Origin: Escherichia coli
GTDB lineage: Bacteria; Pseudomonadota; Gammaproteobacteria; Enterobacterales; Enterobacteriaceae
Length of the DNA: 64,000 nucleotides
Assembly (NCBI RefSeq): GCF_022846255.1
Contig: NZ_AP025682.1
Reading direction: 5' to 3' (one strand)
The position numbers and the translations under genes are program-made. The notes beneath the pieces were generated by a model. The model was not told the origin of the DNA. It did no database searches and saw only the letters and a list, made by a program, of their open reading frames with translations. How positions within the stretch are numbered: the first letter of the stretch is position 1; each line of letters opens with the position of its first letter. Shown piece after piece: positions 20,729 through 62,125 of this stretch.

Positions 20729-21544
20729 ATGAGCGTAAAAGTTATCGTCACAGACATGGACGGTACTTTTCTTAACGACGCCAAAACGTACAACCAACCA
20801 CGTTTTATGGCGCAATATCAGGAACTGAAAAAGCGCGGCATTGAGTTCGTTGTCGCCAGCGGTAATCAGTATTACCAGCTTATTTCGTTCTTTCCTGAGC
20901 TAAAGGATGAGATCTCTTTTGTCGCGGAAAACGGCGCACTGGTTTACGAACATGGCAAGCAGTTGTTCCACGGCGAACTGACCCGACATGAATCGCGGAT
21001 TGTTATTGGCGAGTTGCTAAAAGATAAGCAACTCAATTTTGTCGCCTGCGGTCTGCAAAGTGCATATGTCAGCGAAAATGCCCCCGAAGCATTCGTCGCA
21101 CTGATGGCAAAACACTACCATCGCCTGAAACCTGTAAAAGATTATCAGGAGATTGACGACGTACTGTTCAAGTTTTCGCTCAACCTGCCGGATGAACAAA
21201 TCCCGTTAGTGATCGACAAACTGCACATAGCGCTGGATGGCATTATGAAACCCGTCACCAGTGGTTTTGGCTTTATCGACTTGATTATTCCCGGTCTACA
21301 TAAAGCAAACGGTATTTCGCGGTTACTGAAACGCTGGGATCTGTCACCGCAAAATGTGGTAGCGATTGGCGACAGCGGTAACGATGCGGAGATGCTGAAA
21401 ATGGCCCGTTATTCCTTTGCGATGAGCAATGCTGCGGAAAACATTAAACAAATCGCCCGTTACGCTACCGATGATAATAATCATGAAGGCGCGCTGAATG
21501 TGATTCAGGCGGTGCTGGAAAATAAACCGCCGTTTAATCTTTGA
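20729..21544 (+). CDS. ybiV: HAD-family (Cof-type) sugar phosphatase YbiV (271 aa)
   Basis: ORF track; DMDGT HAD motif I at N-terminus, GDSGND motif near C-terminus. Confidence 0.9.
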
Positions 21545-21582
21545 TTATCGCCAATTCAGTTTATTGAGAAAGTGCATGTCAT

Positions 21583-21683
21583 TATGCCGGATACGGCGTA
21601 ACCGCCTTATTTGGCATACAAAATCATGAAAATTCAATATATTGCGATACACTGCCAGGCCTGATAAGCGTAGCGCACCAGGC
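21583..21683. repeat. BIME-1/RIP-like element: degenerate REP, IHF-like linker, REP
   Basis: gccggatacggcgtaaccgccttatttggc, then linker with tcaatatattg (IHF-like WATCAAnnnnTTR), then gcctgataagcgtagcgcaccaggc; followed by hairpin cagtagccctga...tcagggctactg at about 21709..21737. Confidence 0.75.
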
Positions 21684-21743
21684 AATCTTGCGTTTGTCAT
21701 CAGTTTCAGTAGCCCTGACCACATCAGGGCTACTGATAATAAC

Positions 21744-23336
21744 TTACTCGATCCCTTTACTACGCAGGTAATCTTCGTAATTACCGCTAAAGTCGATCAC
21801 GCGTTCCGGGGTGATTTCCAGAATACGGGTCGCCAGGGAGCTTACGAACTCACGGTCGTGTGAAACAAAGATCAGCGTGCCCTGATACAGTTCCAGCGCC
21901 ATGTTCAGCGACTCAATAGATTCCATATCCAGGTGGTTGGTCGGTTCGTCCATGATCAGAATGTTCGGCTTCTGCATCATTAACTTACCAAACAGCATCC
22001 GCCCTTTCTCCCCACCGGAAAGCACTTTCGCTGGCTTTTTGATGTCGTCCTGGCTGAACAGCAAACGACCGAGAATGCTGCGTACCGCCTGCTCGTCATC
22101 GCCTTCCTGCTTCCACTGGCTCATCCATTCGAACACGGTCAGATCATTTTCAAACTCATATTCGTGGTCCTGAGCGTAGTAACCAATGCGCGCGTTTTCA
22201 GACCATTTTACGGTGCCGCTGTCCGGTTGCAGATCGCCCACCAGCGTTTTCAGCAGCGTTGATTTACCGACGCCGTTGGTACCCAGTACCGCCAGTTTTT
22301 CACCCACTTCCAGCAGCAGGTTGAGATTTTTAAACAGTGGACCGTTATCAAACCCTTTAGTCAGACCTTCCACTTCCAGCGCGTTACGGAACAGTTTCTT
22401 ATCCTGCTCAAAACGGATGAACGGGTTCTGACGGCTGGAGGCTTTCACCTCTTCCAGTTTGATTTTATCAATCTGGCGCGCACGCGAAGTTGCCTGGCGA
22501 GATTTCGAGGCGTTGGCGCTAAAGCGGCTAACGAAAGATTGCAACTCAGCAATCTGCGCTTTCTTCTTGGCGTTATCAGCCAGCAGACGTTCACGCGCCT
22601 GAGTCGCCGCCGTCATGTACTCATCGTAGTTGCCCGGATAAACGCGCAGCTCGCCGTAATCCAGATCCGCCATGTGGGTACAAACCATGTTAAGGAAGTG
22701 ACGGTCGTGCGAGATGATGATCATGGTGCTGTCACGCTCGTTCAGCACCTGTTCCAGCCAGCGAATGGTGTCGATGTCGAGGTTGTTGGTCGGTTCGTCG
22801 AGCAGGAGAATGTCCGGATCAGCAAACAGCGCCTGAGCCAGCAGCACACGCAGCTTCCAGCCAGGAGCAACTTCACTCATCGGGCCGTAGTGCTGTTCCA
22901 CTGGAATTCCCACGCCAAGCAACAGTTCACCAGCGCGAGCTTCCGCAGAGTAACCGTCCATTTCGCCGTATTTCACTTCCAGATCGGCCACTTTATAGCC
23001 GTCTTCTTCACTCATTTCCGGCAAAGCATAGATGCGGTCACGCTCCTGCTTCACTTCCCACAACTCTTTATGCCCCATGATCACCGTATCCAGCACAGTG
23101 AACTCTTCAAAGGCAAACTGATCCTGACGCAGCTTACCAATGCGCTCGTTGGGATCGAGGGAAACGTTACCCAACGTCGGCTCTAAGTCGCCGCCGAGGA
23201 TCTTCATAAAGGTGGATTTACCACTACCGTTCGCGCCAATCAGGCCGTAACGGTTGCCGCCGCCGAATTTGACGGAAATGTTTTCAAACAACGGCTTACT
23301 GCCGAACTGCATGGTGACGTTACTGGAAACTAACAC
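21744..23336 (-). CDS. ybiT: ABC-F family ATPase YbiT, tandem ABC domains (530 aa)
   Basis: ORF track; two Walker A motifs ([18 protein letters not shown]); no TM domain. Confidence 0.92.
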
Positions 23337-39906: not shown

Positions 39907-39956
39907 TTCAGATGTGGGGCGCAAGGCTCACTAATGTTGATGGCGAGAGCAGGACT

Positions 39957-40054
39957 GCCTGATGCGCTGCGCTTATCAGGCCTACAAGGTTGTGCAATAC
40001 ACTGAATTCACATCATTTGGTAGGCCGGATAAGGCGTTCACGCCGCATCCGGCA
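39957..40054. repeat. BIME: two inverted REP units with a roughly 34-nt linker
   Basis: gcctgatgcgctgcgcttatcaggcctac ... gtaggccggataaggcgttcacgccgcatccggca. Confidence 0.85.
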
Positions 40055-40084
40055 CCTGAGCACCATTGCCTGCTGTTAAAAATC

Positions 40085-40110
40085 GGTGTGGGGCGCAGGC
40101 CCCACTTTTT
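40085..40110 (+). terminator. hairpin plus T5 just upstream of ybiX
   Basis: gtgggg-cgcag-gcccca-c stem followed by TTTTT, 12 nt before the ybiX ATG. Confidence 0.5.
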
Positions 40111-41403: not shown

Positions 41404-41664
41404 ATGAAAACTATCAATACTGTTGTTGCTGCTATGGCTCTTTCAACTCTGTCATTTGGCGTGTTCGCGGCGGAACCGGTAACGGCATCCCAGGCACAGA
41501 ACATGAATAAAATCGGCGTGGTTTCTGCCGATGGCGCATCCACCCTCGATGCCCTGGAAGCGAAACTGGCTGAGAAAGCCGCGGCGGCCGGTGCCAGTGG
41601 ATACAGCATTACTTCCGCCACCAACAACAATAAATTAAGCGGTACTGCGGTAATTTATAAGTAA
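41404..41664 (+). CDS. ybiJ: DUF1471/YhcN-family small periplasmic protein YbiJ (86 aa)
   Basis: ORF track; signal peptide; C-terminal GTAVIYK; paralog of mcbA. Confidence 0.9.
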   Translation: MKTINTVVAAMALSTLSFGVFAAEPVTASQAQNMNKIGVVSADGASTLDALEAKLAEKAAAAGASGYSITSATNNNKLSGTAVIYK

Positions 41665-41667
41665 TTC

Positions 41668-41744
41668 GTAGGACGGATAAGGCGTTTACGCCGCATCCGG
41701 CAACAGATGCCTGATGCGACGCTACCGCGTCTTATCAGACCTAC
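41668..41744. repeat. BIME (two REP units, short linker), with a further partial REP about 20 nt downstream
   Basis: gtaggacggataaggcgtttacgccgcatccggca - acagat - gcctgatgcgacgctaccgcgtcttatcagacctac. Confidence 0.85.
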
Positions 41745-41864
41745 AAAATCCGAACCGTTGGCTGGATCAGGCGTTTACGCTACGTTCAGCACAAGTATTT
41801 CCCTGTCTGTTTGCCGACAGACGCATATGCTCTAACCCTCATTGATCCTATGTTACCCTTGTTT

Positions 41865-46293: not shown

Positions 46294-46365
46294 TTGTGGC
46301 ATTTTTCGGTTTTCAGGGGTAATGGTTTTTCTGTTTCGGGAAAGCGGCTCGCAATAACCAGCAGG

Positions 46366-46563
46366 ATGATGCGTAAAGCGCTTCGCGCTAAATTCGAACA
46401 ACATGCAGAACTGCGTACACTCTTGCGGGCAACCGCGTCCGCAAAACTGGTTGAGCATACGCAAAATGATGCTTACTGGGGAGATGGCGGTAATGGTCAG
46501 GGCAAGAATCGCCTGGGGTACCTTTTAATGGCGTTGCGCGGACAATTGGCTGCGGAGAAGTAA
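46366..46563 (+). pseudogene. ybiA: 3' remnant of ybiA (DUF1768 N-glycosidase family); 5' two-thirds missing
   Basis: only the C-terminal roughly 65 codons (MMRKALRAKFEQHAEL...NDAYWGDGGNGQGKNRLGYLLMALRGQLAAEK) carry the family motif; the in-frame upstream open frame runs through the dinG LexA box and start codon. Confidence 0.7.
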
Positions 46564-46644
46564 CGCATCGGGTGGCTTGTGGGCGTTAAAACAGAGAAAT
46601 CTTTTTGCCGCGCTCGCAAATGGCTGACAAGTGCTTGTTGTGAA

Positions 46645-46746
46645 ATGCCGGATGCGGCGCGAGCGCCTTATCCGGCCTACAAAAACATGCACATTCAATA
46701 TATTGCAGAGTTCACGTAGGCCTGATAAGCGTAGCGCATCAGGCAG
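46645..46746. repeat. BIME-1/RIP-like element: REP, IHF-like linker, REP
   Basis: atgccggatgcggcgcgagcgccttatccggcctac - linker with tcaatatattg - gtaggcctgataagcgtagcgcatcaggc; followed by hairpin catgccgggcatagcccggcatg at about 46768..46789. Confidence 0.85.
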
Positions 46747-46814
46747 TTTTGTGTTTGTCATCAGTCTCATGCCGGGCATAGCCCGGCATAAAAGATTACT
46801 GCGCAGCGGCAGGT

Positions 46815-48149
46815 TTACGCGGACGGCGGCGACGTTGTTGTTCGCCTGCCGGTTTGGCATCGACGAGACGGTTTTTCTGCGGGCTTCGCGTTACCAGACT
46901 TCGCACCACTTTCCGTACGGCGTGGTTGCTGTTGACCGCGACCACCGCCCTGTCCACGACCGCCGCCACGTTGCTGGCGACCGTTCTGGATCGGTTCGGC
47001 TTTGATTGACGGGTCCGGCTCATACCCCGGAATCGCAATGCGCGGGATCTCTTTTTTCAGCAGTTTTTCGATATCACGCAGCAGTTTGTGTTCATCAACA
47101 CACACCAGCGACAATGCTTCGCCAGTTGCCGCCGCACGGCCAGTACGCCCGATACGGTGAACATAATCTTCCGGTACGTTTGGTAACTCATAGTTGACGA
47201 CGTGCGGCAACTCTTCGATATCCAGACCGCGCGCAGCGATGTCAGTTGCCACCAGTACACGAATATCGCCCGATTTAAAATCGGCCAGCGCACGAGTACG
47301 CGCACCTTGCGATTTATTACCGTGGATCGCCGCACTACGGATGCCGTCTTTATTAAGCTGTTCAGCCAGATGGTTAGCGCCATGTTTGGTACGGGTAAAC
47401 ACCAGCACCTGCTGCCAGTTCCCTTTCCCAATCATATGCGACAGCAATTCGCGTTTGCGTTTCTTATCGACAAAGTGAACGTGCTGGGTCACCTGATCAG
47501 ACGCAGTATTGCGGCGTGCCACTTCGATTTCCAGCGGGTTGTGCAACAGTTTTTCCGCCAGGGCTTTAATATCGTCAGAGAAGGTCGCGGAGAACAACAG
47601 GTTCTGGCGCTTCGCTGGCAGTTTTGTTAACACGCGACGGATATCGTGGATAAAGCCCATGTCGAGCATGCGGTCAGCTTCATCAAGGACGAGGATTTCA
47701 ACCTGATCCAGCTTCACTGCATTTTGATGTTCCAGGTCCAGCAGACGTCCCGGCGTTGCCACCAGCACATCAACGCCGCCGCGCAACTTCATCATTTGTG
47801 GGTTAATGCTGACACCGCCAAACACCACCAGCGAACGAATGTTCAGATATTTGCTGTAATCACGGACGTTTTCGCCAATCTGCGCCGCCAGTTCACGGGT
47901 CGGGGTAAGAATGAGCGCGCGTACCGGACGACGCCCTTTGGCGTGCGGCTGGCGAGTGATCAGGTGTTGCAACAACGGCAGCGTAAAGCCCGCTGTTTTG
48001 CCGGTACCGGTCTGGGCGCTGGCCATCAGGTCGCGGCCTTCCAGCACCGCAGGGATCGCCTGCTGCTGAATAGGGGTGGGTTCACGGTAACCCTGCTCGG
48101 CAACGGCGCGCAGGATATCAGGGCTTAAACCCAAAGAATCGAAAGACAT
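46815..48149 (-). CDS. rhlE: DEAD-box RNA helicase RhlE; reading frame shifted near the 3' end (444-aa ORF; expected C-terminal tail is in another frame ending at 46796)
   Basis: ORF track; [17 protein letters not shown]-terminus, [23 protein letters not shown] motifs; Arg-rich tail ...[23 protein letters not shown] is encoded out of frame in ORF 46796..47038. Confidence 0.85.
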
Positions 48150-59137: not shown

Positions 59138-59236
59138 GACTTTCTCCTGAAGATATAAGGAATATCTTAAGGATACTGCAAAATGATGAGGCTGTGCATC
59201 GACGCAGCGTAAACGTATGTACTGAGCGGTGAAATT

Positions 59237-59263
59237 GCCGGACGCAGCGGTGCCTTATCCGGC
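59237..59263. repeat. single REP element 3' of the moa operon
   Basis: gccggacgcagcggtgccttatccggc. Confidence 0.8.
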
Positions 59264-59273
59264 TAACAATAAA

Positions 59274-59726
59274 CTACCAGCGTTTTGCCGCCTGCTGATC
59301 GCTCTCCCGAGCTTCGACCCAGCGGTCGCCTTCCGGCGTGGCTTCGCGCTTCCAGAACGGTGCGCGGGTTTTGAGATAATCCATAATAAACTGCCCGGCT
59401 TCAAACGCACTGCTGCGATGCGCACTGGTAACACCGACAAAAACAATTTCATCGCCCGGCCATAATTCACCAATGCGGTGAATTACCGTGACGCGCCCCA
59501 GCGGCCAGCGGTTACGCGCTTCATCAACGATTTCTGCCAGTGCTTTTTCTGTCATTCCCGGATAGTGTTCGAGGGTTAATGCTTTGACGCTGTCGCCCAG
59601 GTTATGGTTGCGCACCTTACCGGTAAAGGTGACTACCGCACCGTCTTCGTCACGCTCAGCCAGCCACGGGTACTCTTCTCCTACGCTGAACGGCTGCGGG
59701 CCGACAACAATTTTGGTTTCTGCCAT
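59274..59726 (-). CDS. moaE: molybdopterin synthase catalytic subunit MoaE (150 aa)
   Basis: ORF track; synteny. Confidence 0.95.
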   Translation of the reverse strand: MAETKIVVGPQPFSVGEEYPWLAERDEDGAVVTFTGKVRNHNLGDSVKALTLEHYPGMTEKALAEIVDEARNRWPLGRVTVIHRIGELWPGDEIVFVGVTSAHRSSAFEAGQFIMDYLKTRAPFWKREATPEGDRWVEARESDQQAAKRW

Positions 59727-60987: not shown

Positions 60988-61977
60988 TTAGCCACCAATG
61001 TACGATAAGTTTTGCGTAATACCGGTGTTATTTTGATGCAGGAAATGGGTCTGTTTTTTCTCCCGCAGCGCCGCTGAAATACGCGCTTCCAGCGCCTGTT
61101 GCTGGGTATCGTCTTCCAGCAGATCGCGCAGGTTAACGCCGCCTTCACCAAACAGGCAGAGATGGAGTTTACCAATGGAGGAAACGCGCAGGCGGTTGCA
61201 AGTGGCGCAGAAGTCTTTTTCATACGGCATGATAAGGCCAATCTCTCCGGCGTAATCCGGATGACAAAAGACTTGCGCGGGACCGTCGCTGCGTTGACGT
61301 AATTGGTGGATCCAGCCGCGACGCAGTAGCTCGTCACGCAGAACCTGACCAGAGATGTGATGCTTACGGAAGAGCTCGCTGCCCTCGCCCGTTTCCATCA
61401 ATTCGATGAAACGCAGCTGGATAGGGCGATGCTGGATCCAGTTCAGAAAGGTGTCGAGCTGATGATGATTAACATCACGCATCAGCACGGTATTGACTTT
61501 GACCTTCTCAAAACCGGCCTCAAATGCAGCATCGATTCCTGCCATGACCTGGTTGAATTTATCCTGCCCGGTAATGGCATGAAACTGGCGAGCGTCAAGG
61601 CTATCAACGCTGACGTTGATGCCAGTAAGTCCAGCATCGCGCCAGTTCGCCACATCGCGTTCCAGACGGTAACCATTGGTGGTGACCGCAATCTGGCGGA
61701 TAGCGTCGTTTTCCCGCACAGCGGCGATGATATCGGTAAAGTCGCGGCGTAAAGATGGCTCACCGCCCGTCAGACGGACTTTTTCGGTGCCAAGACTGGC
61801 GAAGGCGCGCGTAACCCGGCGAATTTCATCGACGGTAAGAAAGCCTTTATTGGTGACGCCGCTCGGTTTGTAGCCATCCGGCAGGCAGTAGGTGCAACGA
61901 AAGTTACACACATCGGTAATCGACAGGCGCAAGTAGTAAAACTTACGCGCAAATGCATCAGTCAGTTGTGAAGCCAT
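60988..61977 (-). CDS. moaA: GTP 3',8-cyclase MoaA (radical SAM, 329 aa)
   Basis: ORF track 60988..62058 trimmed to [31 protein letters not shown]; the longer ORF would read through the leader. Confidence 0.93.
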
Positions 61978-61984
61978 GTACACC

Positions 61985-62125
61985 TTTCCAGATACGGGAG
62001 GCGAAGTCATTTCTTCCTTCGCCCTGGTGGCAATCTTTACAAGCATTGTCACGGCCAAAGCACCGTATCAGTTGACCCAGGTGCAGAGGCTAGAGTGTTT
62101 AGTGGTTAAGCCGATACTAGCGTGT
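61985..62125 (-). ncRNA. Moco riboswitch (moaA 5' leader RNA)
   Basis: minus-strand sequence ...aaacactctagcctctgcacctgggtcaactgatacggtgctttggccgtgacaatgcttgtaaagattgccaccagggcgaaggaagaaatgacttcgcctcc... immediately upstream of the moaA ATG; boundaries approximate. Confidence 0.7.

Follow-up and report, generated by a model that had tools for sequence, protein, structure and literature searches.

Repeats downstream of rhlE and ybiT in Escherichia coli as members of the BIME-1 family, and a possible role of terminator hairpins in BIME-1 insertion

Two copies of BIME-1 at convergent gene ends

The stretch of DNA investigated in this study, referred to as the window, comprises 64,000 nucleotides of an Escherichia coli genome (NCBI RefSeq assembly GCF_022846255.1, contig NZ_AP025682.1). 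Two of its convergent gaps, one between ybiV and ybiT and the other between a remnant of ybiA (ybiA') and rhlE, each carry a single unit of a composite repeat that contains two repetitive extragenic palindromic (REP) sequences. An initial annotation of the window had described both units as the same module, found in equal orientation at the 3' ends of rhlE and ybiT and proceeding from a REP through a linker with a consensus-like site for the integration host factor (IHF) to a second REP, a conserved string, a hairpin and the stop codon of a minus-strand gene. Our comparison bears out the homology, the common orientation and this order at both loci, as positions 46600-46830 and 21540-21780 align on the plus strand with a mean column identity of 81% over about 250 columns, in an alignment that runs through REPs, linker and flank. 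Judged by their sequence, both regions are almost certainly copies of the bacterial interspersed mosaic element BIME-1 (equivalent to RIB and RIP), a non-coding palindromic repeat of about 154 bp that is similar to transposable elements of the miniature inverted-repeat type (MITEs) and occurs in Escherichia and related enterobacteria. Their parts and the adjoining hairpins are as follows.

46616..46646, plus strand: left arm of the rhlE-side BIME-1, outer end eroded, 52% identity to the arm consensus TCAGATTGCTGACAAAGTGCGCTTTGTTCAT
46647..46676, plus strand: rhlE-side Y-type REP, 0 mismatches to the Y pattern and 93% identity to the consensus
46677..46719, plus strand: rhlE-side L linker with GTAG end and predicted IHF-type core TTCAATATATTGC at 46694-46706 (exact 13-mer)
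46720..46744, plus strand: rhlE-side Z1-type REP, exact match to GCCTGATAAGCGTAGCGCATCAGGC
46745..46769, plus strand: rhlE-side right arm AGTTTTGTGTTTGTCATCAGTCTCA, 23/25 identity to the family consensus AATTTTGCGTTTGTCATCAGTCTCA
46770..46788, no strand assigned: rhlE host 3' hairpin TGCCGGGC-ATA-GCCCGGCA, flush with the right arm and outside the repeat
21556..21585, plus strand: left arm of the ybiT-side BIME-1, 65% identity to the consensus, beginning 11 nt past the ybiV stop codon
21586..21615, plus strand: ybiT-side Y-type REP, degenerate, with 3 mismatches to the Y pattern
21616..21658, plus strand: ybiT-side L linker with predicted IHF-type core TTCAATATATTGC at 21633-21645, its GTAG tag mutated to CCAG
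21659..21683, plus strand: ybiT-side Z1-type REP, 1 mismatch
21684..21708, plus strand: ybiT-side right arm AATCTTGCGTTTGTCATCAGTTTCA, 23/25 identity to the consensus
21709..21733, no strand assigned: ybiT host 3' hairpin GTAGCCCTGA-CCACA-TCAGGGCTAC, outside the repeat

The minus-strand stop codons lie beyond the hairpins, at 46796-46798 for rhlE in its K-12 frame and at 21744-21746 for ybiT. The relationship between the regions extends past the REPs, to which it would have been confined if the flanks were no more similar than chance: both right arms, which match the family consensus at 23 of 25 positions, are identical to each other at 21 of 25, and the 13-mer GTTTGTCATCAGT that they contain occurs exactly at these two sites of the window and nowhere else in it. 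A chance similarity, or one restricted to the REPs, was rejected on the grounds of this arm identity and of the exclusive occurrence of the 13-mer. No match to the Y REP pattern is expected by chance (0 matches). Identity to the family consensus amounts to 83-100% in the REPs and to 74-81% in the linkers of the two copies, and both linkers carry a predicted IHF-type site, whose core fits the IHF consensus WATCAANNNNTTR with one mismatch. The conserved left arm of 30-31 nt upstream of the Y REP had escaped the initial annotation, as had a third copy of the element on the opposite strand of the window.

The properties of the family were defined by a scan of one genome per bacterial species with a pattern located inside the linker and the Z1 REP, which returned at least 120 loci; most of those listed belong to E. 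albertii, to strains resembling E. coli and to Pseudocitrobacter. As the pattern does not reach into the flanks, the copies were sampled blind to them. From among the matches listed, 84-85 REP-anchored copies were sampled, on which the other family counts of this study rest. Their common architecture spans 154 nt and consists of a left arm of 31 nt, the Y REP, an L linker of 43 nt in which the IHF core TCAANNNNTTG is located, the Z1 REP and a right arm of 25 nt. In the anchored profile, conservation ranges between 55 and 90% over 31 nt leftward of Y and 25 nt rightward of Z1, and it falls abruptly to background beyond both arms. At least 17 of 25 positions of the right arm are matched in 58 of the 85 sampled copies and at least 21 of 31 positions of the left arm in 67, at 99th percentiles of the null of 15/25 and 17/31, respectively. 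The conserved string of the initial annotation is the right arm of the BIME-1 family. The outer 14 nt of the arms form imperfect terminal inverted repeats with 12 of 14 positions paired, a value reached in 12 of 5000 shuffles, and the family consensus folds into a single long hairpin. In the terminology of Gilson et al. 1991, the two arms would be motifs 'A' and 'B'. Read outward, the end of the right arm (CTGATGA...) may also resemble the outside end of IS10, which is IHF-dependent as well, a resemblance on which we base no claim.

The membership of the two copies is underlined by a profile hidden Markov model (HMM) of 154 positions, which was constructed on 48 copies from other loci and other species, leaving out the copies of the window and the orthologues of their loci. 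In a search with nhmmer, positions 3-153 of the model matched 46618-46768 on the rhlE side (E=2.3e-44) and positions 2-153 matched 21557-21707 on the ybiT side (E=3.5e-38). With identities to the family consensus of 82.5% (rhlE) and 80.5% (ybiT), both are found at about 80-83%, compared to a family median of 91%, and their mutual identity of 70.8% places them at rank 49-50 of 51. These pairwise identity ranks led us to reject gene conversion between them. Each has more in common with the consensus than with its counterpart, and they therefore constitute independent dispersed members of the family. Both occupy the same loci in K-12, and the rhlE copy does so also in E. albertii, from which we infer that they are old as well as independent insertions.

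The location of the copies at gene 3' ends is shared with the family. In the 85 sampled copies, the gene context is convergent in 40, tandem in 24 and divergent in 2, and the right arm faces the 3' end of a gene in 67 of 76 cases, so that the orientation common to the rhlE and ybiT copies is the expression of a family-wide bias. The distances between stop codon and arm peak at 23-45 nt, which equals the length of one hairpin. The proposal of a modular 3'-end element therefore stands with respect to a repeated module at the 3' ends of genes and falls with respect to any special relation to rhlE and ybiT, as BIME-1 is distributed genome-wide; the modules themselves belong to an already known repeat family and are not a new 3'-end module. 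At the gathering threshold, Rfam contains no family that matches either module, and no REP or RIP features are annotated between 824 and 864 kb in the RefSeq table of MG1655.

Two matches of the species scan stem from outside the enterobacteria, one on a contig of a metagenome-assembled Bacteroides genome (L030) and the other on a 262-nt contig of Desulfosporosinus sp. OT (L031). Both are near-consensus copies of the enterobacterial BIME-1 and most likely reflect contaminating or mis-binned Escherichia-like DNA. Within the window, a weak match of the profile at 59213-59293 (E=2e-4) covers the Y-REP part of the model and is probably a solitary REP.

Hairpins at the borders of BIME-1

The point where the conservation of the family ends coincides with the start of another pronounced feature. 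Among 53 sampled copies with an intact right arm, 40 are followed by a strong hairpin within 45 nt, which in 36 of these 40 begins at offset 0, and on the left side a strong hairpin is found at offset 0 from the arm in 26 of 35 cases. In 54 complete sampled copies, we scored the flanks for direct repeats, calling those that exceeded the 99th percentile of permuted pairs. Direct hairpin repeats were detected outside the arms in 27 copies and abut both arms, with at most 1 nt in between, in 23 of them. Their length ranges from 9 to 24 nt with a median of 19 nt, and they comprise at least 18 distinct hairpin sequences. A run of A is found outside the left hairpin copy in 17, and a run of T outside the right copy in 16, of the 27 cases. 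Because the hairpin sequences are specific to their locus, the target rather than the element is the source of the duplicated material. The comparison of these flanks points to a process where the insertion of BIME-1 duplicates a whole hairpin of the target.

This process is also suggested by three loci at which alleles with and without the element can be compared. The first concerns the third BIME-1 of the window, a diverged copy located between fiu and ybiX, with the following features.

39914..39931, no strand assigned: degenerate fiu terminator hairpin GTGGGGCGCAAGGCTCAC, directly abutting the right arm of the third BIME-1
39932..40087, minus strand: third, diverged BIME-1 between fiu and ybiX (nhmmer 40055-39937, E=4.9e-33)
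40088..40105, no strand assigned: intact fiu terminator hairpin GTGGGGCGCAGGCCCCAC with TTTTT behind it, directly abutting the left arm of the third BIME-1

The element is missing from K-12 and O157, and many genomes align to this region in two pieces with about 174 nt absent. The fiu hairpin GTGGGGCGCAGGCCCCAC with its TTTTT is found once in K-12 (L002 15209-15249) and the hairpin twice in the window, where its copies flank the element. Between gloC and aspC, the empty allele of strain LF82 reads AAAAAA-GCCCGCTTTCAAGCGGGC-TTCATCGGTTTT and thus holds one hairpin, whereas the filled allele of S10 carries the same hairpin on either side of BIME-1. Similarly, one hairpin is present in the empty allele at zapB (F2_81; ATA-AGGCGCCTTGCGGCGCCT-CTG), and the hairpin is found on both sides of the element in the filled allele (L077). 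The empty site consequently contains a single hairpin in each of the three pairs.

In the rhlE and ybiT copies, the hairpins are located outside the point where family conservation ends, which defines them as host sequence and not as part of the repeat. The view that the hairpin is a swapped part of the module is thus not upheld, the equivalent structure at other copies being a pre-existing terminator. The two hairpins have no sequence in common. The folding of both 3' untranslated regions (UTRs) exceeds that of shuffled sequences, with z-scores of -5.8 for rhlE and -4.8 for ybiT. Neither strand of 46300-47000 or 21300-22000 contains a terminator-like site, and promoter scans at both loci were negative as well. 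In case of rhlE, a T-run comes before the hairpin on the mRNA strand. This hairpin is kept at its locus in K-12 and E. albertii, with its loop flipped in the latter. At ybiT, two E. coli alleles of equal length, CGTCACCCCGA...TCGGGGTGACG and the GTAGCCCTGA...TCAGGGCTAC of the window, differ by four fully compensated base pairs, which argues for selection on the stem; the first of these, not found in the window, is present in K-12 and O157.

Constant stems with reverse-complemented loops were encountered between orthologues or between the two hairpins that flank one element. They concern rhlE of the window compared to E. albertii (L008; ATA opposed to TAT), L051 compared to L064, and L024, with CAAG opposed to CTTG as a further example. 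These flips look like inversions via strand switching in palindromes.

Collectively, the junctions would be accounted for if BIME-1 inserted at the foot of a pre-existing, often bidirectional terminator hairpin. The strands would probably be cut at each foot of the hairpin or cruciform once it is extruded, with duplication of the whole stem-loop as the result. The product would consist of an A-tract, a hairpin, BIME-1, a second hairpin and a T-tract, in which the terminator is split in two and where each of the convergent transcripts would have to traverse the whole element before meeting the hairpin that bears its U-tract. At rhlE and ybiT, the left-hand hairpin copy would since have decayed or been deleted, and the present hairpins would be the surviving halves. 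We thus tentatively propose that BIME-1 behaves like a MITE whose target rule is structure-specific, in that it integrates at the foot of a hairpin and duplicates the entire stem-loop of 9-24 nt (median 19), a reading that we regard as plausible and as somewhat short of probable. If it were true, an IHF-binding palindrome would now lie between each gene and the U-tract hairpin that would terminate its transcript, and the 3' ends of convergent mRNAs should therefore overlap.

Several observations weigh against this proposal. In 9 flanking pairs the inverted arrangement scores better than the direct one, compared to 20 pairs where the direct arrangement prevails, which is unexpected under simple target duplication, and some hairpin pairs contain reverse-complemented loops (L024, L051). 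If duplications decay with age, the repeat score should rise with arm identity, yet the two are correlated weakly and without significance (Spearman 0.21, p=0.13). The rhlE and ybiT hairpins are devoid of a U-tract on either strand and are thus no canonical intrinsic terminators. Both copies also lack a clear hairpin duplicate: to the left of the rhlE left arm there is at most an unconvincing half-hairpin remnant, TGCCGCGC, and the left flank at ybiT has been replaced as part of the putative deletion of ybiU. Insertion at a hairpin foot is thus an extrapolation from the family as far as the rhlE and ybiT copies are concerned.

The arms and the paired hairpins could alternatively owe their origin or their upkeep to selection or to palindrome-driven replication errors, such as template switching or fold-back synthesis, in which case the empty alleles would reflect precise deletions between the repeats. 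The loop inversions, which are found within pairs (L024, L051) and between orthologues (rhlE; L051 compared to L064), are signatures of strand switching, and direct repeats of 19 nt would favor a precise deletion. Losses of BIME-1 have reportedly been termed 'excisions', and a variable presence of the element among isolates is described by Bachellier 1997, as far as that work is quoted in PMC1187871. However, the direct orientation dominates (20 compared to 9 pairs), 23 of the 27 repeats are flush with both arms, and the association of an A-tract with one hairpin copy and a T-tract with the other is what would be expected from a single bidirectional terminator that has been split. The hairpins are moreover specific to their locus and the duplicate is hence derived from the target; even if the empty state resulted from deletion, the duplication must have arisen together with the element. 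We therefore consider an origin by selection or replication errors unlikely, if by no means negligible.

Much more remote are two explanations that concern the rhlE and ybiT copies in particular. The flank and hairpin might represent a dedicated regulatory module of the 3' end, specific to these two genes and under selection for a role in processing, binding of small RNAs (sRNAs) or termination. The order of stop codon, hairpin, right arm and Z1 is in fact identical relative to both genes, and both 3' UTRs fold far better than shuffled sequences (z = -5.8, -4.8), but the same flank recurs in 58 of 85 BIME-1 copies, which belong to unrelated loci of several species, the orientation follows the bias of the entire family (67/76), the hairpins have no sequence in common and each of the two copies stands near the bottom of the other's ranking of relatedness within the family, which renders such a module very improbable. 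We assign even less likelihood to a recent duplication or gene conversion between the loci, which would at the same time have caused the rearrangements in their vicinity. Although the copies are co-oriented and 25 kb apart, with gene content at both loci that differs from K-12, their mutual identity of 70.8% contrasts with the 80-83% that relate them to the family consensus, they reside at the loci where they are also found in K-12 and, in case of the rhlE copy, in E. albertii, and the lesions in ybiA and rhlE do not adjoin the element. Dispersed, old members of the BIME-1 family thus remain the preferred description of both regions.

As for the proposed insertion at hairpin feet, no description of a hairpin duplication beside BIME-1 was found in the accessible literature, a body that does not include the founding BIME-1 papers, and the junction rule may thus be new. 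The spread of REPs and BIMEs is a question of about 40 years' standing. The junction signature, which combines a flush direct repeat of a whole hairpin, a single hairpin at empty alleles and the split of A- and T-tract between the two copies, makes this question concrete by asking which enzyme cuts both feet of the hairpin.

Lesions in neighboring genes and other features of the window

The differences in gene content from K-12 that the initial annotation had remarked on, concerning an absent ybiU, a truncated ybiA and a frameshifted rhlE, are all present. Their attribution to repeat-associated rearrangement fits the first of the three, where the right breakpoint is within 11 nt of the left end of the element, and does not extend to the lesions in ybiA and rhlE at distances of 252 and 91 nt. 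Together with ybiU, the terminator of ybiV is absent (window 21545-21555 compared to K-12 L002 33797-35213), which leaves the ybiV stop codon 11 nt from the left terminus of BIME-1, and homology with K-12 resumes at the left arm of the ybiT-side copy. In E. coli, 1052 of 5426 complete genomes have ybiV next to ybiT, which identifies the absence of ybiU as a lineage polymorphism; it is compatible with an element-adjacent deletion.

In ybiA, an internal deletion of 298 bp relative to K-12, with its junction at 46363/46364, has removed the start codon and approximately the first 83 codons, and the remnant is annotated as a pseudogene with a NADAR domain in ATCC 11775 and other close relatives. 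The lesion in rhlE is an 8-bp deletion at 46860/46861 between the short, imperfect direct repeats CGCCGAGA and CGACGAGA inside the gene, which shifts the frame of the C-terminus and moves the end of the open reading frame to 46815 instead of 46796. No full-length match in the complete genomes of E. coli has this deletion, which is either a private change of the present genome or an error in its sequence. Both intergenic regions thus deserve the label BIME-1/RIP, and the nearby pseudogene lesions should not be blamed on the element.

The ybiT locus itself is a hot spot of polymorphism, as are BIMEs in general. In O157:H7 (L128), its BIME-1 is reduced to one chimeric REP via the GCCTGAT common to Y and Z1, with both arms kept, and in E. 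coli HS (L127) an IS621, an IS110-like element with known REP targeting, has inserted at the Z1 REP. In strain 127, ybiU is present together with a ybiT hairpin of the window type.

Elsewhere in the window, further REP units, these of the BIME-2 type, are clustered between hcxB and ybiJ (41634-41815). The cluster encompasses a match to the Rfam family naRNA4 above the gathering threshold at 41671-41741, and the K-12 annotation places the sRNA ZbiJ at the equivalent position. An ordinary molybdenum cofactor (Moco) riboswitch is found on the minus strand at 61965-62109 (103 bits). These two are the only Rfam matches in the window.

Relationship to known mobile and repetitive elements

In its published description, BIME-1 has one y and one z1 REP, inversely oriented, on the two sides of a long and well conserved L linker that often contains an IHF site, and it occurs in single copies (PMC3333891, Ton-Hoang 2012; PMC2817692, Nunvar 2010). 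Chiapello et al. 2005 (PMC1187871) give its length as about 140 bp and describe it as absent from some isolates and present in others; a unit of that size would have to comprise the flanks. The synonyms stand for 'reiterative ihf BIME' (RIB, Boccard & Prentki 1993) and 'repetitive IHF-binding palindromic element' (RIP, Oppenheim, Rudd et al. 1993), and binding of IHF in vitro and in vivo is reported for the family in these works as cited in PMC2817692 and PMC3333891. Every feature that defines BIME-1/RIB/RIP at the level of sequence is found at both the rhlE and the ybiT locus, and the differences, including the CCAG tag and degenerate Y REP at ybiT and the eroded left arm at rhlE, can be ascribed to decay with age. 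About 60% of REPs are located between convergent genes, where they act as terminators or stabilizers in 3' UTRs (bioRxiv 10.64898/2026.03.23.713779), and REP hairpins in these regions are described in the literature to modulate termination and to guard against 3' exonucleases.

With respect to its mobilization, BIME-1 shares with the REPINs that are associated with RAYT proteins the presence of two inverted REPs with a 5' GTAG tag, which form a larger hairpin, and it is distinguished from REPINs by its additional conserved outer arms and its IHF linker. The TnpA-REP protein of E. coli, a RAYT with a Y1 HUH domain related to IS200/IS605, cuts BIMEs in vitro, with CT sites of the iREPs and the linkers as its targets (PMC3333891), which makes RAYT/TnpA-REP a candidate for the mobilization of BIME-1 by analogy with the published activity. 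In contrast to what is seen in the flanks of BIME-1, single-strand transposition of the IS200/IS605 type does not cause target duplication. The window does not contain a RAYT gene, and our analysis has identified no transposase with terminal repeats that match those of BIME-1.

A close parallel is provided by MITEs such as the Correia or NEMIS elements of Neisseria, which also contain an IHF site. Like BIME-1, these elements are non-coding, have a length of about 150 bp with terminal inverted repeats and form one long stem-loop, and the resemblance extends to the internal IHF site, the polymorphism between filled and empty sites and the location at gene 3' ends, and may extend to flanking direct repeats of the target (PMC2229807, PMC3184786). 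The two differ in the duplicated target, which in classical MITEs is an arbitrary or short consensus sequence of 2-10 bp, whereas it would comprise a whole stem-loop of 9-24 nt in case of BIME-1. An outer palindrome is also associated with the REP dimers of other phyla (Di Nocera et al. 2013, PMC3733652). However, in contrast to these dimers, which are located inside a single palindrome whose halves flank them, BIME-1 is found between two complete hairpins that are direct repeats of each other.

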